From assembly GCA_964539545.1 (NCBI GenBank), contig CAZIJG010000004.1:8054-72053 (forward strand): a DNA stretch of 64,000 nt, written 5' to 3'. How positions within the stretch are numbered: the stretch's first letter is position 1; the number at the start of each line of letters is the position of its first letter. This DNA comes from an uncultured Gammaproteobacteria bacterium. GTDB lineage: Bacteria; Patescibacteriota; Patescibacteriia; Patescibacteriales; UBA12465. Shown one piece after another: positions 50,323-60,447 of the stretch. The position numbers were made by a program, and so were the translations under genes. The notes under the pieces are model-generated. The model did no database searches. It saw only the letters and a list, made by a program, of their open reading frames with translations, and was not told the origin of the DNA.

Positions 50323-50344
50323 GAATATTCAACTAATTTCATTT

Positions 50345-50679
50345 TCATCACCTCCCCTTGTATTACTAAGCATCAAACAATTGTGACGCTATTGTGACTG
50401 AAAGGTGATTAAAAATGGTAAATACTGGTAACTTCTGGCGACTTAGAACAGGGAATAATAATAGCTAATATTACGATAATTTAGCTATTATTAGCAACAA
50501 TGTCAGATAGTCCATTTCGTGCTTCGAATCCGACCCCGGGAGCAAGCAAAAATAGGCTAAGGTTAGCCTATTTTTTAGTATCAAAGACATCAAGATGTCA
50601 CAATTTGTGACGTTATTGTGTCGGTTTTTTCTTAGATTTTAAAGAAAAAATTATTTTTAGAATCCTAACCCGAAATTAC
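50345..50679 (+). repeat. junction unit C: arm + perfect core (50523-50544) + terminator + integrase relic + variant half core (50659-50675)
   Basis: ATTGTGACGCTATTGTGAC at 50380-50398; TGTCACAATTTGTGACGTTATTGTGTCGG at 50596-50624. Confidence 0.85.
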
Positions 50680-52003: not shown

Positions 52004-52209
52004 ACTTAGTGCCACCTCCCATCACCTCTCCTTATATTGCACGCCTCACAAAAAGTTGTGACGCTATTGTGACTGAAAGGTGATTAAAAGTGGTAAATGC
52101 TGGTAACTTCTGGCGACTTAGGACAGGGAAGAATAATAGCTAATATTACGATAATTTAGCTAGTATTAGCAATAATATTTAATAGTCCATTTCGTGCTTC
52201 GAATCTAAT
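52004..52209 (+). repeat. junction unit D: arm + diverged core (TTCGAATCTAATCCCGGGAT)
   Basis: TTGTGACGCTATTGTGAC at 52048-52066; core variant at 52190-52209 directly abuts a promoter. Confidence 0.85.
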
Positions 52210-52215
52210 CCCGGG

Positions 52216-52244
52216 ATAGGATATTGACAAAAGTATATTTTCAC
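52216..52244 (+). promoter_or_regulatory. cassette promoter module copy 1
   Basis: TTGACA (52216-52221), 17 nt, TATGCT (52239-52244), then TTTTTATTAC. Confidence 0.6.
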
Positions 52245-52300
52245 GGTATGCTTTTTTATTACATTTAGATACACAAATTGTTCATTAAAAAACTATAACT

Positions 52301-52966: not shown

Positions 52967-52997
52967 AACCGCATAATCAATATGCGGTTCTTTTTTT
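52967..52997 (+). terminator. cassette terminator
   Basis: AACCGCATA/TATGCGGTT stem plus T7. Confidence 0.8.
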
Positions 52998-53004
52998 ACT
53001 AAAT

Positions 53005-53335
53005 TTTTAATCACCTCCCCTTGTATTACTAAGCATCAAAAAATTGTGACGCTATTGTGACTGAAAGGTGATTAAAAGTGGTAAATGCTGGTAACTTCTG
53101 GCGACTTAGAACAGGGAAGAATAATCGCTAACATTACGATAATTTAGCTAGTATTAGCAACAATATCCGATAGTCCATTTCGTGCTTCGAATCCGACCCC
53201 GGGAGCAAGCAAAAATAGGCTAACATTAGCCTATTTTTTAGTATCAAAGACATAAAAATGTCACAATTTGTGACGTTATTGTGACGTAAAATCCCAATGT
53301 TTTAGACATTTAGATTTTTCTTGTATCCGACCCCA
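53005..53335 (+). repeat. junction unit E (reference copy): arm + perfect core (53186-53207) + terminator + integrase relic (53259-53286) + half core (53320-53335)
   Basis: ATTGTGAC at 53043 and 53054; TGGTAA/TGGTAA/TGGCGA at 53079, 53089 and 53099; core identical to tRNA-Asn 3' end. Confidence 0.9.
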
Positions 53336-53402
53336 GAGAGTATTTATATATAAAATATGGTATAATTAAAAAAAGATTATTAATTACTCTAATAATAAAT
53401 CT

Positions 53403-54101
53403 ATGTTAGAAAATTTTCCTGTCGCTCAAACTAAAAAAGAAAAACCTAAGAAAACATTTAAAGAAAGGATTTTACAAAATAAAGCCGCAAAAATCGCAGC
53501 CATCTTTTTAATTATGCTTGGATCTGCTAAGTCGTTAGAGGCAAGCGGTAATACTGAAGGTGGACCTGACCCAGAAAATGTGAAGCACAAGATCGAAGAT
53601 GCTAGGGGGTTCTTAAAGCAAATAATTCCAGACACAAAAAATAGTGATAATGCTGCATCTCATACACTTAACGGTCGAAATATAAGTACTTGTAAGTATC
53701 CCACTGGTCAAGAAGTGACAGTAGCTGATAATAATGATTATATTATAGTTTCAACTGATGAGGGTAGAAAAGTTTTTTACGATGATGATGCCGATGGCTC
53801 TTTGGATAGGGTGGTGCTTAATAAGGGCGAAGAAGAAGAAAGAATTTTTGTTAAAAATGCAATGTATGCATTTCAATCAATGGAGGAAATGGCTGAACAA
53901 GCTGAAGTAATAGCAGATTTAATGCCTAAGCAGGTTAGTGTTCTTAATCTTAATCATGAAAACGGAGAAGCTCAATTTGTAGATATGTCTGACGGCGCGA
54001 GCGGAACATTTACTGAAGATGACGCCGATGGTCTAATTAATACAATGCAAGATCGCTATACTCAAGAATTAGAAGAAATTTCTCAGGATTTAAATAAATA
54101 A
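53403..54101 (+). CDS. hypothetical secreted/anchored acidic protein
   Basis: Hydrophobic segment AAKIAAIFLIMLGSAKSLEA; TGgTATAAT box at 53358-53366. Confidence 0.45.
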   Translation: MLENFPVAQTKKEKPKKTFKERILQNKAAKIAAIFLIMLGSAKSLEASGNTEGGPDPENVKHKIEDARGFLKQIIPDTKNSDNAASHTLNGRNISTCKYPTGQEVTVADNNDYIIVSTDEGRKVFYDDDADGSLDRVVLNKGEEEERIFVKNAMYAFQSMEEMAEQAEVIADLMPKQVSVLNLNHENGEAQFVDMSDGASGTFTEDDADGLINTMQDRYTQELEEISQDLNK

Positions 54102-54134
54102 AATAGTCTATATTTAAGTGATTTTTTTTATTAC

Positions 54135-54336
54135 TTTCACCACCCCTCCTTGTATTGCCAGCGAAACAGAAAGTTGTGACGCTATTGTGACTGAAAGGTG
54201 ATTAAAAGTGGTAAATGCTGGTAACTTCTGGTAACTTAGAACAGGGAATAATAATAGCTAATATTACGATAATTTAGCTAGTATTAGTAACAATATCTGA
54301 TAGTCCATTTAGTACTTCGAATCCGACCCCGGGAGC
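54135..54336 (+). repeat. junction unit F: arm + near-perfect core (54316-54336, 21/22)
   Basis: TTGTGACGCTATTGTGAC at 54174-54191; followed by hairpin terminator at 54341-54371. Confidence 0.85.
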
Positions 54337-54414
54337 TATTAGAAATACCCTATAAAATTAGGGTATTTTTTGTTACTCATTTTTTTAATGTTTGATTTTT
54401 GGTATAATAAAAGA

Positions 54415-54834
54415 ATGAAAATCTTCAACGAAAAAATCTGGAGAAGGCATACGAGCCCTCTTAGTGGTTGGACGCGTGTAATTGCTTTCTTTTTGATACC
54501 TATCCTAATTTGGACTCAAAATTGGTATCTACTGTTGGTCCTGCTAGCTTTTTTTGTAGTTAATCCAATTCTTTTTTCTGAACCAAAAAATAAAGATAAT
54601 TGGATGAGCAAATCCATATTAGGAGAAGAACTATGGACTAAAAAAGGGGTTTTGCAAAAGGATTTTCCTACTGTACTAAATCTCTTAAATGGACTTTTCT
54701 TTTTTATACTAATCTACGGTGCGTATAATAACTTATTGGAAGTAACAATTTTTTCAACTATATTATCAAGTGTCTTTAAACTTTGGTATTTAGATAGAAT
54801 GGTTTTATATTATGATAATAAAAAAAATAACTAA
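54415..54834 (+). CDS. hypothetical membrane protein
   Basis: ATG at 54415 downstream of TGgTATAAT (54400-54408); 3-4 TM. Confidence 0.5.
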   Translation: MKIFNEKIWRRHTSPLSGWTRVIAFFLIPILIWTQNWYLLLVLLAFFVVNPILFSEPKNKDNWMSKSILGEELWTKKGVLQKDFPTVLNLLNGLFFFILIYGAYNNLLEVTIFSTILSSVFKLWYLDRMVLYYDNKKNN

Positions 54835-55585
54835 TTGGAAAATATTTTGGGTATTATTTACTGCTGGAATGTTCGGAGTTATAGCAATATTTCCTTTTTT
54901 GCTCACAACGCAGGGGGATGTATTAAGAGAGCTTCCCATTCCATTATCCGTGGTTCTTCTTGCCAGTGCTATGCAAAGCGCTGTACTTATAGGAGTTGCT
55001 ATATTTGTTGGATTACGACTAGGTAAAAAAATTGGTTTTGGAACACCTCTTATTTCTTCTTGGCTTTCAGGAGAGTCTGTTAGAGAAAAACTTAAGTCAG
55101 TTGCGAAGGTGTCAATAGGGCTGGGAGCATTGAGTGGTATTTTAATTATCGGTTTTGATTATATATTCAACCTGTTTATAGGGCCTATATCTACTGTAAG
55201 CACACCATTGTGGCAGGGTTTTTTGGCATCATTCTACGGAGGTGTTGTCGAGGAAATACTATTAAGACTATTTTTTGTAACTCTATTGGTTTGGATTATG
55301 TGGAAGTTTTCAAAATCTAAGAATATTAAACCTCCCATTACAACTATCTGGATTGCGATAATTTCTGCTTCAGTAATATTTGGATTAGGCCATTTGCCCG
55401 CAACCGCATTACTTACTACAATCACTCCAGTCATTATTTTTCGTGCAGTATTATTAAATGGAATTGGTGGTGTTATTTTTGGCTGGCTATATTGGAAGAA
55501 AGGATTTGAATCGGCAATAATTGCTCACTTCACTACAGATATAATTCTTCTTACTATCTTTCCATTATTATTGAATTTAAACTAA
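54812..55585 (+). CDS. CPBP-family intramembrane glutamic endopeptidase (CAAX protease/bacteriocin-processing type)
   Basis: GGVVEEILLRLFF (EExxxR), FGLGH and HFTTD motifs. Confidence 0.75.
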   Translation: MIIKKITNWKIFWVLFTAGMFGVIAIFPFLLTTQGDVLRELPIPLSVVLLASAMQSAVLIGVAIFVGLRLGKKIGFGTPLISSWLSGESVREKLKSVAKVSIGLGALSGILIIGFDYIFNLFIGPISTVSTPLWQGFLASFYGGVVEEILLRLFFVTLLVWIMWKFSKSKNIKPPITTIWIAIISASVIFGLGHLPATALLTTITPVIIFRAVLLNGIGGVIFGWLYWKKGFESAIIAHFTTDIILLTIFPLLLNLN

Positions 55586-55589
55586 TTTT

Positions 55590-56105
55590 ATGAAAAAAAC
55601 GATATTATATATAGCTCAAAGTTTGGATGGTTTTGTCGCCACCAAAGACGGGAGCGTATCTTGGCTTGATGATTATTTTGATGTTGACTTTGGTAATTAT
55701 AGTTATGATAAGTTTGAGAAAGGTATTGATACAATAGTTCAGGGAAGTACAACCTACGATCAATTTAAACCAAAATATCCAGGAAAGAATAGTTATGTTT
55801 TTGCCAGTGATGCAGATGGTAGAAATGAGGAGGGAACAATTTTTGTAAAAGGAGAGGTAAAAAAGTTCGTTGATGATCTGGATGAGAAAACTCATGAAAA
55901 TATTTGGTTGGTGGGAGGACCAACATTATTAGCAGGATTTTTAAATAAAAAGCTTGTAGATGAAATGATTATTTTTACGATGCCAGTTTTATTGAAAGAA
56001 GGTATCTCTTTATTCAGTAATATCAAAGTAAGTCCTAATATTTCATTGCAAAAGGTTAAAAATTATGAAAAAGGTGTGATGGTCTCGCATTATAATATTA
56101 AATAG
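55590..56105 (+). CDS. dihydrofolate reductase-family (RibD C-terminal domain) protein
   Basis: ILYIAQSLDGFVATKDGSVSWLD N-terminus; WLVGGPTL. Confidence 0.7.
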   Translation: MKKTILYIAQSLDGFVATKDGSVSWLDDYFDVDFGNYSYDKFEKGIDTIVQGSTTYDQFKPKYPGKNSYVFASDADGRNEEGTIFVKGEVKKFVDDLDEKTHENIWLVGGPTLLAGFLNKKLVDEMIIFTMPVLLKEGISLFSNIKVSPNISLQKVKNYEKGVMVSHYNIK

Positions 56106-56106
56106 T

Positions 56107-56226
56107 ATGAAAAGAGTTTCTGCTGGATACCGAATCACTATTAGTATTGTGATTGCTATAATACTTCTTCTTGTCTGGATGGAGCTAGCTGTTGGCATTT
56201 TTGGGACTCCATGGGCAGGATCTTAA
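56107..56226 (+). CDS. possible 39-aa single-TM peptide
   Basis: Hand-translated MKRVSAGYRITISIVIAIILLLVWMELAVGIFGTPWAGS; ATG is 2 nt after the preceding stop. Confidence 0.3.
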   Translation: MKRVSAGYRITISIVIAIILLLVWMELAVGIFGTPWAGS

Positions 56227-56236
56227 TACGCACAAG

Positions 56237-56434
56237 ATATCACCTCTCCCTGTATTACTAAGCATCAAAAAATTGTGACGCTATTGTGACTGAAAGGTGA
56301 TTAAAAGTGGTAAATGCTGGTAACTTCTGGCGACTTAGAACAGGGAAGAATAATCGCTAACATTACGATAATTTAGCTAGTATTAGCAACAATATCCAAT
56401 AGTCCATTTGGTGCTTCGAATCCTAACCCTTGAG
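56237..56434 (+). repeat. junction unit G: arm + diverged core (TTCGAATCCTAACCCTTGAG)
   Basis: ATTGTGACGCTATTGTGAC at 56272-56290; differs from unit E arm at ~4 positions by eye. Confidence 0.85.
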
Positions 56435-56441
56435 TAAAGTC

Positions 56442-56470
56442 TTGACAAAAGTATATCAATATGGTATACT
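56442..56470 (+). promoter_or_regulatory. cassette promoter module copy 2
   Basis: TTGACA (56442-56447), 17 nt, TATACT (56465-56470), then TTTTTGATAG. Confidence 0.6.
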
Positions 56471-56494
56471 TTTTTGATAGATAAAATTCTATTT

Positions 56495-56722
56495 ATGAAC
56501 CTTAAAACTATAAAAATGGGAAAGAAAGCATTTACTGTATTTTTTACAGATCAGCCAGGTGAGGCGTCGATTACTCAGTTAATCAAATTTATAAACGAAC
56601 ATAATCTTGAGGCTTCCGACTACCACTTGATAGCTTTGCCTTCGGGTATAGCTGAAGGAGGATTTATTAAAGGCGCAAATATTAGTTGTATTTATCATTC
56701 AGAAAAAGAGTTATCCTGTTAA
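56495..56722 (+). CDS. hypothetical small protein
   Basis: Track start 56474 (TTG) lies at the predicted TSS, so ATG 56495 (or 56516) is preferred. Confidence 0.4.
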   Translation: MNLKTIKMGKKAFTVFFTDQPGEASITQLIKFINEHNLEASDYHLIALPSGIAEGGFIKGANISCIYHSEKELSC

Positions 56723-56810
56723 TTAAATTTTAAAACCATCTTAGTTATAGATGGTTTTTTTCTATATTTTATTATTATTTCTTCTCCTTTTCAATAATAC
56801 CCCAATCAAT

Positions 56811-56920
56811 GGTTCTAATCGTGTTCTTAATGGGGAGTATCCAAAAATAGGCTAATATTAATCTATTTTTTAGTATCAAAGATATAAAAATGTTACAATT
56901 TGTGACGCTATCGCAGCTTA
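56811..56920 (+). repeat. collapsed junction unit: degenerate T-loop-like core + terminator + integrase relic
   Basis: GGTTCTAATC..., AAAAATAGGCTAATATTAATCTATTTTTT, TGTTACAATTTGTGACGCTATCG. Confidence 0.6.
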
Positions 56921-56949
56921 TTGACGAAGGCATACTTTTACGGTATGCT
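56921..56949 (+). promoter_or_regulatory. cassette promoter module copy 3
   Basis: TTGACG (56921-56926), 17 nt, TATGCT (56944-56949), then TTTTTAATAC. Confidence 0.55.
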
Positions 56950-57004
56950 TTTTTAATACCTAAAATATATAAATTGTTCTTATAAATAAAAACGGGAGGT
57001 TAAT

Positions 57005-57334
57005 ATGTTAAAATGTAGTGATTGTGGATATAAAGGTGTGAATCTTTCTCCGAGTTATGGTGATGGTACAGCCAGATGTCCTCGTTGTAATGGTGTTTTC
57101 GAGGGTATACTCGCTCGAAATGCTTTGTACGATGATTTCTCAACAGTAAAAGAGGGAAATACTTTAAAGAAAGTTAATTGGGGAACAGGTGAGACGCCTC
57201 AGGATGTCGTAGTGGAAGAAGTGGTTTCTGAAATGATTATTATCAGAGTTGATAAAAGGTTAATAAAATTTGACAGCACCACAGGCGTTGCGGTGGATGA
57301 TGACAAATTAGAGTTCCTTACTTTTAACATCTAG
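57005..57334 (+). CDS. hypothetical zinc-ribbon protein
   Basis: CSDC...CPRC; SD GGGAGG 6 nt upstream. Confidence 0.5.
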   Translation: MLKCSDCGYKGVNLSPSYGDGTARCPRCNGVFEGILARNALYDDFSTVKEGNTLKKVNWGTGETPQDVVVEEVVSEMIIIRVDKRLIKFDSTTGVAVDDDKLEFLTFNI

Positions 57335-57433
57335 CAAAAAACATCTTTTCATAAAACGGTGAGGCTTAAGTCAATATCCGTTTTTTTTTATTTCAAGAGT
57401 ATGTTTGATAAAATAATACTGTTTAGATAAAAG

Positions 57434-57612
57434 TTTCGAAGTAAGTCCACTGCCGAGAGCCATCATTTTTTGGGTGTGTCAGACAGGCATATTTTGTTTG
57501 ATATTAGCTAAAAAATAAAGAGATATGATTTAGGTCATGCTTTTTTGTTGGAGTTAAATGAGTGAAAAAAGACTGTAAATAAAGGAGATTTTTAGTTCTA
57601 GTCCGAGTCCTG
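57434..57612 (+). repeat. variant junction unit X1 (second repeat family)
   Basis: TTTCGAAGTAAGTCCACTGCCGAGAGCCA core-like start; the following ~150 nt align with 61606-61775. Confidence 0.6.
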
Positions 57613-57669
57613 TTTTAATGATAATAAAAATGTTATAATTGCCATGATAAGGCATTAAGGCTAAAAATT

Positions 57670-58275
57670 ATGAAATTATTACTAACCTCGACGGGACTGG
57701 CAAACGAAAATGTAAAGAGTAGATTTATCTCTTTATTTAATAAAGATTTTTCCAAAATTAAACTATTATTTGTTGTTTCTGCCGCTGAAAAACCAAAAGA
57801 GAAGTGGTATATTAATAAAAGCGAAGAGGAGCTATTAGCTCTAGGGATTAAGAAAGAGAATTTTGTAACTTATCACACTGGACAAAAGTCAAGTAAAGAA
57901 GTTCTAGATACTGTTGATTTGATATATGTTTGTGGTGGTAATACTTTTCTTCTCCTAGAAGAAATAAAAAAAAGTGGTTTAGACAAAGATATAATTGGAA
58001 TGATTAAAAAGGAAGTATTTTATATTGGTGCTAGTGCTGGTAGTCTTATCGTTACTCCTAATATTAAAATAGCTGAGCCTTGGGATCCAAATGTTAATGG
58101 TTTAAAAGATTTAAGTGGCTTTAATTTAACAGATTTTACGATTGCTCCTCATTATACCAAAGAGGAGGAAAAAAATATTAAGAATATGGAAAGTATTTTA
58201 GGGATAGAGGTAAAAAGGATAACCGATGATCAGGCTATATTATTGATAGACGATAATATAGAGGTTATCAATTAA
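57670..58275 (+). CDS. peptidase S51 (dipeptidase E-like)
   Basis: YVCGGNTFLLL and IGASAGSLIV (Ser nucleophile) motifs; TGtTATAAT at 57631-57639. Confidence 0.7.
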   Translation: MKLLLTSTGLANENVKSRFISLFNKDFSKIKLLFVVSAAEKPKEKWYINKSEEELLALGIKKENFVTYHTGQKSSKEVLDTVDLIYVCGGNTFLLLEEIKKSGLDKDIIGMIKKEVFYIGASAGSLIVTPNIKIAEPWDPNVNGLKDLSGFNLTDFTIAPHYTKEEEKNIKNMESILGIEVKRITDDQAILLIDDNIEVIN

Positions 58276-58279
58276 TAAT

Positions 58280-58748
58280 ATGGTAGAAATTAAAAACTTA
58301 TGTAATTTTTTAGTAAAAGCTAAAAAAGCTATATATGCCAGTGGTGATGAGAATACTAAAATAAAAGAAAGTGATAAATCAACTACTTTGATTTTTGAAG
58401 AAGGAGACTTTAAATATCATGATAACTATTTTGGTGGAGAGCCTTATGGGGGGTAGAGAAGTTGTATTCTTTCAAGATGATCCTATTTATATAATGACTT
58501 ATTATGGATGGGTTAATAAGAACATTTCTAATATTGGCGAGGTCTATAAAGTATTGCAGAAGGCTCTATCTTTAATACCAGAAGATAAGCCATATCGTGG
58601 TCCAAAAGAATATACTGAAGGAGATTATATCTATTCTAACAATTTTACTGGCGAGGTAGATAATTTTTTTGGAGAAGAGACTCTCAAGTATAAGGGCAAG
58701 GAAATATATAAAGCTAAATATACAGGTGGGCTAGTTGATCAAAGATAG
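58280..58748 (+). pseudogene. DUF5680-like gene split by a frameshift in a G6 run
   Basis: Frame 1 (58280..58456) ends ...YHDNYFGGEPYGG*; the +1 frame continues GGREVVFFQDDPIYIMTYYGWV... (track ORF 58395..58748); removing one G at 58448-58453 fuses them. Confidence 0.6.
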
Positions 58749-58753
58749 GAGTT

Positions 58754-58868
58754 GGATTCGAACTGAATTATAATTTAGATTTTTAAAAATATTTAGCTAA
58801 TATTAGATATGGTAGTAGATATTTGTATTATTAAATCGACCTCTAGTTCGAATTGTATTCTCGGAGCA
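58754..58868 (+). repeat. junction unit H: strongly degenerate arm + core variant (TTCGAATTGTATTCTCGGAGCA, 58847-58868)
   Basis: Retains TTAGCTAATATTAG and T-loop-like TTCGAA; abuts a promoter module. Confidence 0.55.
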
Positions 58869-58872
58869 AATC

Positions 58873-58902
58873 TTGACAAATAGTGTATCTAAATGGTACA
58901 CT
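58873..58902 (+). promoter_or_regulatory. cassette promoter module copy 4
   Basis: TTGACA (58873-58878), 18 nt, TACACT (58897-58902), then TTTTTGATAT. Confidence 0.55.
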
Positions 58903-58944
58903 TTTTTGATATTTCAATTTATTGTTCATTAAAATTAAATTAGT

Positions 58945-60126
58945 ATGGCTAGAACTGGTAAGGCACTATCGCCTATATTTGTTAAAAATTTAGTTATTAA
59001 AGTGGCTAGGCGTGAGGGTATTCTTTTAAACGAAAATAGATTAGATGCAATTGATAAAATTTTATCAACTTTACCGCCTAACCCCAATCCCACTTGGATT
59101 ATTAGGTGGTATAGTTACAAAACTAAGAAAGAAATTTTGAAACGTTTTCAGTATAAATTAAAAGCTAAAGTTTTGTGTACTGGAGTTTATAAGGAAATTT
59201 TTTATTTTCTTAATCAAGACGAGTTTATTCGTTTAACCCAATTGTTAATTTCTAACCCACCAGAAAAAATTAATCCTCAATGGATTAGAAAAAATGCTTA
59301 CGCATTGTCTGTATCTATTAGGCGTACTTGTGCAGGAGTGAGAACCCTTGATGGTCGAATTGACTGGGAATTTGTTTTTAAGAAATTAAAAGTAAATAAT
59401 TTTTGTTACCGGAAGACAATTCCTCGAAGAGGTGATAAAGAGAAAATTATAAAGGATTTAGTTAATGTATTAGAGACGGAAGACCCAGAGATTTTTTATT
59501 ATGAATGGTTAGAAAAAAATTGTGGACCGATTGCAAAACAATTACAGATAATGTTCAAAAGTAATTGGTTATTTGTAATATCCCTATTAGATAAAAAATG
59601 GCAGAAACGCTGGCGTTATTATGGGGCTGTACAATCAGTCGATTGGTACATTAATAGGAAAGAGTTTAGCAGAGTTCTCGAAAGGTATCGCCATAAATTA
59701 TATTTGGTATATGTTGATATTAAGAGTGAGAGAAATTTACGTAATAAAATGATGTTAGATTTTTTGTTTATTGTTCAGAAAGGTAATTTATTAGCTAGGG
59801 ATTTTTTAATAGATAGCGTGAAATTGACCTTGTATGATAGTGATCAGTTATCCGATTGGCATAAGTTTAACGGTTTATTAGAGGAAAAAATAGAAAGATG
59901 TATTTTACGATTTGATTTAGTCAAAGGTGATAATTTTTATAATTATTTGTATAAATCAGTTAAATTTTTTGCTTTACCCTTTGTTGGTCTAAACGCCTTT
60001 TCCATTAATGAATCTACTTGTGATTCTTCTCAAGAAATTTCTGAATCTCTATTAACACAATCTCAGAAGGAAGATGTTGAGGAGTTTATCCGCGGCATTA
60101 AGTTAGCCTTAGTGCAGGAAAATTAA
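58945..60126 (+). CDS. hypothetical protein
   Basis: 393 aa ORF, Trp/Arg-rich, no motif recognised. Confidence 0.5.
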   Translation: MARTGKALSPIFVKNLVIKVARREGILLNENRLDAIDKILSTLPPNPNPTWIIRWYSYKTKKEILKRFQYKLKAKVLCTGVYKEIFYFLNQDEFIRLTQLLISNPPEKINPQWIRKNAYALSVSIRRTCAGVRTLDGRIDWEFVFKKLKVNNFCYRKTIPRRGDKEKIIKDLVNVLETEDPEIFYYEWLEKNCGPIAKQLQIMFKSNWLFVISLLDKKWQKRWRYYGAVQSVDWYINRKEFSRVLERYRHKLYLVYVDIKSERNLRNKMMLDFLFIVQKGNLLARDFLIDSVKLTLYDSDQLSDWHKFNGLLEEKIERCILRFDLVKGDNFYNYLYKSVKFFALPFVGLNAFSINESTCDSSQEISESLLTQSQKEDVEEFIRGIKLALVQEN

Positions 60127-60154: not shown

Positions 60155-60168
60155 TATTATTTAAATTT

Positions 60169-60367
60169 CCATCACCTCTCTTTGTATTGTCAGCGAAACA
60201 AAAAATTGTGACGCTATTGTGACTGAAAGATGATTAAAGGTGGTAAATACTAATAATTCCTGGCGACTTAGAACAGGGAAGAATAATCGCTAACATTACG
60301 ATAATTTAGCTAGTATTAGCAACAATATTTGATAGTTTATTTGGTGCTTCGAATCTGATTCCGAGAT
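60169..60367 (+). repeat. junction unit I: arm + diverged core (TTCGAATCTGATTCCGAGAT)
   Basis: ATTGTGACGCTATTGTGAC at 60205-60223; core variant at 60348-60367. Confidence 0.85.
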
Positions 60368-60369
60368 TA

Positions 60370-60398
60370 TTGACAAAAATATATCGACATGGTATGTT
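60370..60398 (+). promoter_or_regulatory. cassette promoter module copy 5
   Basis: TTGACA (60370-60375), 17 nt, TATGTT (60393-60398), then TTTTTTGATAC. Confidence 0.6.
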
Positions 60399-60447
60399 TT
60401 TTTGATACTTAATATATTATTTAACATTCAAAAAAGCGGAGGTAGTA

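Follow-up and report, generated by a model that had tools for sequence, protein, structure and literature searches.

Actinomycete elements of the pSAM2 type carry a repSA-xis-int-attP module and have a tRNA gene as their target. Mycobacteriophage L5, a phage of Actinobacteria that has no cassette array, reportedly also uses a tRNA-gene target, and its attP is said to hold seven arm-type sites arranged in adjacent pairs, with four phased sites for the excisionase (Xis) gp36 between the P1/P2 pair and the core. Here we examine a conserved segment, positions 53005-53207, of a 64,000-nucleotide stretch of DNA assigned to the Patescibacteriota (GenBank assembly GCA_964539545.1, contig CAZIJG010000004.1, positions 8,054 to 72,053 of the forward strand), the whole of which is called the window below. 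We consider it likely that this segment is the P arm and core of a lambda-type attachment site, that is, a site for a heterobivalent tyrosine integrase (Int). The site very likely belongs to a small rep-xis-int element integrated in the 3' end of a tRNA-Asn gene in a Patescibacteria genome. Mobile elements of Patescibacteria (candidate phyla radiation) have hardly been described, and a full-text literature search found no paper on an element of this kind.

In lambda attP, the P arm is ordered P1-H1-P2-X1-X1.5-X2-F-H2 before the core and the P' arm H'-P'1-P'2-P'3, and a 240-bp junction complex has been described (PMC4880445). The attP of ICEMlSymR7A spans 283 bp and has five arm motifs (PMC11963761). 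The window site, with a whole length of ~280 bp (53005-53286), falls within the ~240-280 bp of such sites and resembles lambda attP in its layout: arm sites flank the core, two on the P and three on the P' side, int adjoins the P' arm, and phased sites lie on the P arm between an Int arm site and the core. The integrase, too, appears lambda-like in having a small N-terminal domain for arm sites that are unlike the core sites. In contrast to lambda, the P-arm sites are adjacent with no integration host factor (IHF) site between them, and four phased units are present rather than three. A tRNA 3' end serves as the core, the int reading frame contains the P' sites, and the arm includes an inverted repeat and a TGTATTGC box that have no lambda counterpart. 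No recognisable IHF or Fis consensus was found in the arm, unlike in lambda.

The locus also resembles L5, as that phage is reported, in its tRNA target, its adjacent pair of boxes, its four phased sites and its small helix-turn-helix excisionase of the same family, whereas the site sequences are unrelated and L5 is said to have seven arm sites and no array. With elements of the pSAM2 type it would share the rep-xis-int order beside the attachment site and integration in a tRNA 3' end. However, the Rep encoded here is weakly similar to RepSA (21.6 bits compared with a family cut-off of 700), no transfer genes were recognised in the window, and the host belongs to another phylum.

Candidate integrase boxes flanking the core

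Two TTGTGAC boxes, 11 bp apart, are present on the plus strand of arm copy E (53044-53050 and 53055-53061), which serves as the reference among the window copies, labelled A-H. An initial annotation, made from the sequence alone, had listed this pair as ATTGTGAC motifs at 53043 and 53054 with the same spacing, and direct reading confirms it. TGTGAC occurs 34 times on the two strands of the window, compared with 11.2±3.3 times in 100 dinucleotide-preserving shuffles, of which the highest contained 20 and none reached 34. All but seven of these motifs (27/34) fall in the 3' end of int, in arm copies or just to the right of cores. Boxes are found on both sides of the core, two ~140 nt to its left and three 50-130 nt to its right, and their sequence is unlike that of the core.

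At the left end of the element, a motif search places the right-hand set within the last codons of int, with TGTGAC at 41589, 41600 and 41620 (plus strand, 41587-41626), as the initial annotation had noted for this gene end; this is the P' arm of attL, which is formed by the tRNA-Asn gene and the adjoining int 3' end. At copy E, P'-type arm sites are found without an integrase gene (plus strand, 53259-53286), namely an inverted GTCACA at 53260 and TGTGAC at 53269 and 53280. Three TGTGAC motifs had been claimed to the right of the cores of copies B, C and E; copy C has only two exact motifs, and its third reads TGTGTC.

For comparison, we fetched 80 relative loci from reference genomes through the integrase protein (80 of 492 integrase-encoding stretches) and 76 further metagenome contigs by means of a DNA pattern derived from the arm. 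Homologous arms were found in ~70 contigs of Patescibacteria, Deltaproteobacteria and Nitrospirota, with close as well as more distant relatives of the integrase (~35 at 63-71% identity and many more at 40-56%). The P arms of L010, L017-L019, L021 and L024 were not found within their 10-kb flanks, and IMG/VR viral contigs yielded no arm homologue, merely generic TGTGACG direct repeats. In the 14 arms that were retrieved via the integrase protein alone, the sole set free of pattern bias, the columns of the two boxes are the best conserved of the arm, with majority-base frequencies of 0.96 and 1.00 compared with a background of 0.59-0.61 in unremarkable arm segments. The 4-nt spacer between the boxes varies across lineages (GCTA, GGAA, TTTT, CATA). 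Among the seven full copies in the window, 1 of 19 columns across the boxes is variable. The initial annotation had held that its motifs should be better conserved than neighbouring arm positions, and the TGTGAC boxes clearly are.

The sequence of the boxes changes in step on both arms in four further lineages. Where the window lineage has GTCACA in the int 3' end and TGTGAC in the arm, L016 has GGCCACA twice in int and TGTGGCC and TGTGTCC in the arm. The corresponding pairs are GGACACA twice and TGTGTCC twice in L039, GGGCAAC twice with GTTGACC and GTTGCCC in L028 and L030, and AGTCACA twice with TGTGACC twice in L027. Because the boxes covary between arms, the simplest account is that one protein reads both arms and that its own gene contains one of the two box sets. 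The exceptional conservation of the box columns, their presence on both sides of the core and this covariation strongly support the proposal of the initial annotation that the TGTGAC boxes are arm-type integrase sites.

The putative reader of the boxes is a tyrosine integrase of 370 aa (41532-42644, minus strand; Pfam PF00589 and PF14659). In its AlphaFold2 model, an N-terminal beta-beta-beta-alpha fold (strands 2-6, 9-16 and 19-24 and helix 30-45, at a predicted local distance difference test score of ~90) is separate from the core-binding and catalytic parts and is followed by a linker, a SAM-like domain and a catalytic domain. In a Foldseek comparison, lambda Int (1z1b_A) can be aligned in its full length with the model, over 371 columns and at ~17% identity. 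The C-terminal tail (aa 343-370), which is encoded by the P' arm boxes, is predicted to be disordered. Two adjacent P' boxes encode R-H-N-S-V-T, and LRHNSVT is conserved in the integrase alignment. Across lineages the tail varies with the DNA box, and RHNSVT, FGHNMATV, FGHKMDTR and LGQPVGNF are seen when L016, L028, L030 and L039 are included. Since the tail is predicted to be disordered and changes with the box, its conservation looks like a by-product of the DNA sites.

A tRNA-derived core at constant distance

The core of copy E (53186-53207, plus strand; TTCGAATCCGACCCCGGGAGCA), the probable crossover region, matches the last 22 nt (41471-41492) of a tRNA-Asn(GTT) gene that was identified with ARAGORN and Rfam at 41420-41492 on the plus strand. 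This 22-nt core is intact in copies B, C, E and F. Arms of other lineages have a similar left part and carry tRNA-Ser, an ...TTCGATTCCCGTTACCCGCTCA type or other tRNA 3' ends at the position of the core. The distance from the first box to the core is 138-141 nt wherever it was measured in arms of the tRNA-Asn type. The combination of conserved protein-docking arms with a swappable crossover segment argues that the arm is part of an attachment site.

An independent assembly, L181, matches window positions 53198-59621 at 98.6%, and to the left of this match it has unrelated DNA without an arm. Since the match starts at 53198 and nothing similar is found to its left, the breakpoint lies inside the core; the junction region is L181 3560-3620 as compared with window 53160-53210. 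This strain difference is the only sign of mobilisation, and an indirect one.

To the right of the core, a hairpin with a T run (53215-53240, plus strand) opens the P'-type module and is found in the same module in L003, L012 and L166. It is placed so as to terminate the tRNA gene that integration rebuilds. Copies B (48790-48799) and E (53325-53334) have a second core-like sequence, ATCCGACCCC, just after the P'-type boxes and ~130 nt beyond the core on its right side, and a slightly changed version is present in L181.

Phased repeats between the boxes and the core

Four units with a 10-bp period lie to the right of the boxes in copy E (53066-53104, plus strand): TGATTA at 53069, TGGTAA at 53079 and 53089, and TGGCGA at 53099. 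The initial annotation had given the last three with correct coordinates and spacing but had missed that the series starts with TGATTA. It had also located AGGTGAT correctly at 53066-53072, but this is not a separate element, as it overlaps unit 1 of the series. Among 39 non-redundant arms, self-similarity to the right of the boxes is 0.46 at a lag of 10 compared with 0.20-0.32 at other lags, and control zones show a weak rise at most at lag 10 (0.37 and 0.30). The 10-bp period is clear in L125 (TGATAAGAAC TGATAACTCC TGATAGCTCC TGACAAC), L138 and L184. What is conserved in this zone is the period together with a loose (C/G)TG(A/G)T(A/T)A unit.

Direct repeats spaced one helix turn apart are the typical binding sites of recombination directionality factors (PMC7498355), and such factors of the winged-helix type form head-to-tail filaments (PMC11963761, PMC4880445). 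The Xis sites of lambda are located on the P arm, where they adjoin an Int arm site (PMC4880445). In the window, a protein of 65 aa of the winged-helix excisionase family is encoded directly upstream of int (42654-42851, minus strand; PF12728 at 1.6e-13, TIGR01764 at 47.3 bits compared with a cut-off of 28.8), and an xis homologue precedes int in nearly all of the 80 related loci. Given the 10-bp period, the position of the xis gene and the precedent of other directionality factors, we assign the phased units to Xis as its putative binding sites. The view of the initial annotation that they are Xis or accessory sites is supported by analogy, by the conserved period and by the adjacent xis gene, although TGGTAA is distinguished from neighbouring arm positions through its periodicity and not through its weakly conserved sequence.

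Other conserved parts of the arm

The outer limit of the arm is a left box (53005-53020, plus strand) that resembles the 3' end of 16S rRNA, has a family conservation of 0.73 and forms the left half of an inverted repeat. The initial annotation had recognised this resemblance in TCACCTCCCC (53011-53020) and an A tract that follows, and both are confirmed, the A tract at 53038-53043. Its consensus CACC(T/C)C(T/C)CC fails at the last base in copy H, which has CACCTCTCT. A terminator directly upstream of the arm, which had been assumed for all copies, is confirmed for copy E only (52967-52989). Reading the left box as a Shine-Dalgarno sequence of the minus strand was rejected, as a start codon is suitably placed only in some deltaproteobacterial copies and no open reading frame (ORF) is conserved there.

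In copy E the inverted repeat that brackets the TGTGAC pair, as the initial annotation had described, is 12 bp long and perfect, with TTTTAATCACCT (53005-53016) pairing with AGGTGATTAAAA (53066-53077). An inverted repeat surrounds the integrase boxes in nearly all of 44 arms tested (3-13 bp, median 7), including those of lineages with changed boxes, and its variants include CACCTCTCT / AGAGAGGTG, CACTTTTC / GAAAAGTG, CGCTTCTT / AAGAAGTG and ATCACTTTTT / AAAAAGTGAT. The right half coincides with unit 1 of the phased series, so that one protein could bind the repeat as a pair of inverted sites; a hairpin or a cruciform is another possibility. Next to the left box is the TTGTATTAC box (the TGTATTGC box of the comparison with lambda; 53021-53029, plus strand; family consensus T[G/A]TAT[T/C]GC), which at 0.87 is the second best-conserved block of the arm and stays the same in lineages with altered integrase boxes.

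Between the phased repeats and the core is an A+T-rich segment (53128-53157, plus strand) with two CTAAYATTAS motifs, CTAACATTAC at 53128 and CTAGTATTAG at 53148, around AATTT. This motif has 28 matches in the window compared with 6.5±2.5 expected, and it occurs twice per arm with a spacing of 20 bp, or of 21 bp in other Patescibacteria arms. The initial annotation had described GCTAA...TTAGC palindromes at 53127-53158; the coordinates stand, but the segment is better described as two copies of CTAAYATTAS. It is possibly a site of bending or of an accessory protein. The palindrome CTAATATTAG (or CTAACATTAG), present twice per arm, recurs at 44848-44857, 53220-53229 and 58797-58806; these further occurrences include the apex of the terminator hairpin that follows the core, the main element's divergent promoter region and one cassette.

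Alternative explanations

The inverted repeat raises the question of whether the arm acts as a folded single strand, either as an attC-like hairpin or cruciform or as a single- or double-strand origin for Rep, with the repeat as stem and the TGTGAC pair as loop. Besides the presence of the repeat in nearly all arms and the rolling-circle Rep encoded by the element, this reading can draw on the better pairing of an arm's own halves than of halves from different arms (7.36 compared with 5.98 nt, a difference reached in 0 of 2000 permutations) and on 31 two-sided changes compared with 18.3±3.0 in shuffles, by a fixed-column count. Yet related sequences are counted repeatedly in such data, so that the number of independent covariation events is small, and 73% of cells pair in the real arms compared with 70.5% in shuffles. 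The fold of the whole arm as DNA has a z-score of -0.99, 115 nt separate the repeat from the crossover core, and Rep is missing from most of the related loci that carry the arm. TAGCGT between the boxes, considered as the CS-6 motif of an ssoA origin, was rejected because it is lost where the spacer differs (L012, L014, L016). Nonamers resembling TAATATTAC were likewise rejected as a Rep nick site, since their last base and context vary and the motif recurs in the terminator that follows the core. That the boxes covary with the sites inside int argues instead for a protein that recognises both arms through double-stranded boxes, and we regard the folded strand as quite improbable. A structured noncoding RNA or a cis-acting RNA of a 3' untranslated region (UTR), in which the anti-Shine-Dalgarno-like CACCUCC would pair with the Shine-Dalgarno-like AGGUGAU, is scarcely credible, even though the two boxes are complementary and all cassette genes read toward the arm. 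RNAalifold applied to 21 diverse arms gives -4.65 kcal/mol for the plus strand and -1.0 kcal/mol for the minus strand over ~210 nt, values that speak against both this and the folded DNA strand, the two alternatives that the initial annotation had raised. The single-sequence RNA fold has a z-score of -0.34, no Rfam match was found at the gathering score or at E<=1, and one short helix with weak covariation is all that the arm offers. Copy E is preceded by a terminator, and a promoter scan of the arm found no site, compared with 2.9 expected, hand-built -35/-10 candidates being wrongly spaced. A small ORF of 17 codons over the phased repeats (AAAGGTGAT-N6-GTG), which begins after AGGTGAT, was discarded because it is not conserved; L003, for example, reads GTG GTA AAA TCG TGA.

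Direct and inverted repeats are typical of operators too, and some directionality factors double as repressors (PMC7498355). With CTAATATTAG also present at 44848, within the main element's divergent promoter region, the repeats might be operators of a transcription regulator encoded by the element and the arm its regulatory region. The absence of any promoter-like site in or beside the arm makes this highly improbable, as does the fixed distance of the boxes from a tRNA-derived core and their presence inside the int 3' end, an arrangement that fits a recombination scaffold; moreover, cassettes with a promoter of their own following the core still keep the arm behind them. A passive remnant, whether a duplicated gene end, a 3' UTR or a functionless tandem duplication, might be suspected from the degenerate cores of copies D, G and H and the truncation of copy A. 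We give this idea next to no credence, since homologous arms are found in ~70 contigs of several phyla beside unrelated genes, the box columns are almost invariant while their flanks are variable, and the left-part subtypes in the window match different foreign arms, so that its copies are no simple local duplicates. The specific proposal of a 3' UTR remnant of an ancestral gene, which the initial annotation had named as an outcome fatal to its view, is excluded, since in many genomes the genes in front of the arm are unrelated and the arm accompanies the integrase.

Several observations weigh against a lambda-type attachment site. The sequences of units 2-4 of the phased series have a conservation of 0.67 in the integrase-anchored arms, barely higher than the 0.59-0.69 of their neighbours, and among the window copies 7 of 26 columns are variable in the phased units compared with 8 of 54 in the next 54 nt; the assignment to Xis is therefore drawn from periodicity and analogy. 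The N-terminal domain of Int matches Pfam Arm-DNA-bind_2 below threshold (E=0.055), for which reason its assignment as an arm-binding domain relies on the fold pattern. Alignments from the metagenome scan are biased toward the boxes, as these form part of the retrieval pattern itself. Copies D, G and H keep the arm yet have degenerate cores, and hence some copies are probably no longer substrates. Finally, the lambda scheme has no role for two conserved features, the TGTATTGC box and the inverted repeat that encloses the Int boxes.

A cassette array behind one tRNA gene

The rep, xis and int genes follow in this order on the minus strand and adjoin tRNA-Asn, with a rolling-circle replication initiator encoded at 42903-43610 (PF23343 at 1.5e-22, weak RepSA matches). 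Beyond them are plus-strand genes interrupted by arm copies. The chromosomal left flank, consisting of dnaG, rpoD, one further gene and tRNA-Asn, is syntenic with several metagenome-assembled Patescibacteria genomes, which identifies the host as a member of that group. At the right end of the array, no flank common to related genomes was found within the window. In two deltaproteobacterial chromosomes (L015 11150-11400 and L023 11150-11400), arm, tRNA-like core, terminator and int are contiguous, with neither a tRNA gene nor a second core within 10 kb on either side.

The window contains seven full copies of the arm and one truncated copy, all on the plus strand. Between 47187 and 60401 they delimit at least seven tandem cassettes of 1-4 kb without an integrase gene, each with one to four genes, all on the plus strand, and each closed by an arm and a core derived from the tRNA-Asn 3' end. 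Copy A (47187-47251) is truncated and retains a left box, two TGTGAC boxes and GAGGTGAT only. Copies B (48469-48705; nhmmer 2.4e-53) and C (50341-50576; nhmmer 2e-49; third box degenerate) have a full arm, an intact core and a P'-type module, as does copy E. The junctions B, C and E, at which arm, core, terminator hairpin and three P'-type boxes follow one another, are complete attP-like sites without an integrase gene. In copy F (54132-54372) a full arm and intact core are followed by a hairpin. Copies D (52014-52255), G (56238-56465) and H (60165-60401), the last being the most diverged, have a full arm and a degenerate core that is followed immediately by a promoter module (TTGACA-N17-TATGCT in D). 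A version of this junction with an intact core is found in L013, L138 and L178.

The promoter module (TTGACAAAAGTATAT...TATGCT), which looks like a standard cassette start, occurs at 52222-52262, 56440-56480, 56919-56959 and 60368-60408 and also in L013, L138, L178 and L132. The cores of D, G and H (52200-52220, 56420-56440 and 60350-60370) differ at 4-6 of 22 nt, far more than the arm does. Among the products of the cassette genes are a NERD nuclease, TspO, a pyrimidine-dimer glycosylase, a CAAX protease, RibD_C, Peptidase_S51, DUF6653 and DUF5680; the main element has a DUF4145 gene ahead of the first cassette. Other contigs (L003/L141, L012, L128, L132, L152, L171 and L183) likewise have two or three arms arrayed in the same orientation. 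In L132 (1-1841), three arms are present within 1.8 kb, one of which is cut after the phased units and fused to a promoter module without a core.

Within the array, the left part of the arm (53005-53042 in copy E) falls into two or three subtypes, with B, C, E and G set apart from F and H, and D separate. Because these subtypes match different foreign arms, whereas the segment corresponding to 53062-53158 is nearly identical in the seven copies, the sequences point to independent acquisitions that were followed by local homogenisation.

Tandem accretion has been described for streptococcal integrative and conjugative or mobilizable elements, together with cis-mobilizable elements (CIMEs), which lack integration and transfer genes and keep attL and attR (PMC5704250). 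Tandem islands at tRNA or tmRNA genes are known from Prochlorococcus tycheposons (10.1101/2020.12.28.424599) and Dehalococcoides (PMC3146451). The array fits tandem accretion with cis-mobilizable units, as its units lie in tandem at one tRNA gene, are bounded by repeats of the tRNA 3' end and mostly lack an integrase but have att sites. Units B-to-C and E-to-F agree with the definition of a CIME, having a core and P'-type sites on the left, a P arm and intact core on the right and no int, whereas in units bounded by D, G or H one of the flanking cores is degenerate. The array is, however, unusually regular: at least seven very small units each keep a near-identical, complete 200-nt P arm, and several open with a conserved promoter module, a regularity that looks closer to that of an integron array than to the CIMEs described so far, which are decayed elements.

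As in an integron, promoter-poor or single-gene cassettes are arrayed in one orientation, each ending in a conserved element for one tyrosine recombinase. By contrast, an attC site recombines in a folded single-stranded form, as an imperfect palindrome (R''-L''/L'-R') within which the crossover falls. The window site shows conservation of sequence boxes rather than of a structure, its crossover core consists of a tRNA 3' end, and its sole conserved inverted repeat (53005-53016 paired with 53066-53077) is 115 nt away from that core and has no support from folding. Int, whose modelled N-terminal domain appears to be of the arm-binding type, scores far below the cut-offs for IntI-type integrases (TIGR02249, 61.3 bits compared with 265; PRK15417, 31.6 compared with 435).

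Discussion

From this anatomy we infer a mechanism that, if the element is active today, might proceed as follows. The N-terminal domain of Int would bind the two TTGTGAC boxes of the P arm and three P' boxes, the latter being supplied by the int 3' end at attL or by 53259-53286 at junctions that lack int, while its C-terminal domains would act at the tRNA-Asn 3' end. The excisionase would bind the four 10-bp-phased TGRTAA units head to tail and bend the arm, allowing arm-bound Int to reach the core and driving the reaction toward excision. The A+T-rich stretch with its two CTAAYATTAS motifs might provide a further site of bending or of an accessory protein. Any copy whose core is intact could serve attL as an attR partner, so that the resident Int and Xis might remove the element either by itself or along with varying numbers of cassettes.

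A more far-reaching idea is that the arm is the handle of an integron-like cassette system made from lambda-type parts, in which each unit would consist of a core, a promoter, one to four genes, a terminator, a P arm and a core. Such a system would capture, reorder and co-excise small units without an integrase gene at one tRNA gene of Patescibacteria through a single resident Int/Xis pair. The conserved inverted repeat around the Int boxes would in that case serve either as a hairpin or cruciform in the DNA or as a paired site for protein, peculiar to the system, which would be a main route by which these very small genomes gain genes. We consider this unlikely though worth entertaining.

As a lambda-type P arm, the segment would be a well-known kind of site in a poorly explored phylum, and the cassette array around it is more unusual. 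For a widespread clade of integrases, the arm gives the complete anatomy of an attachment site, comprising the Int boxes, the probable Xis sites, their spacing and interchangeable tRNA cores. Because the last int codons contain the boxes, which change in step with the distant arm, sequence alone should suffice to locate the arm sites of related integrases. Mobile or not, the presence of the same arm behind at least seven unrelated cassettes means that cargo has been gathered at one tRNA gene in a very small genome.

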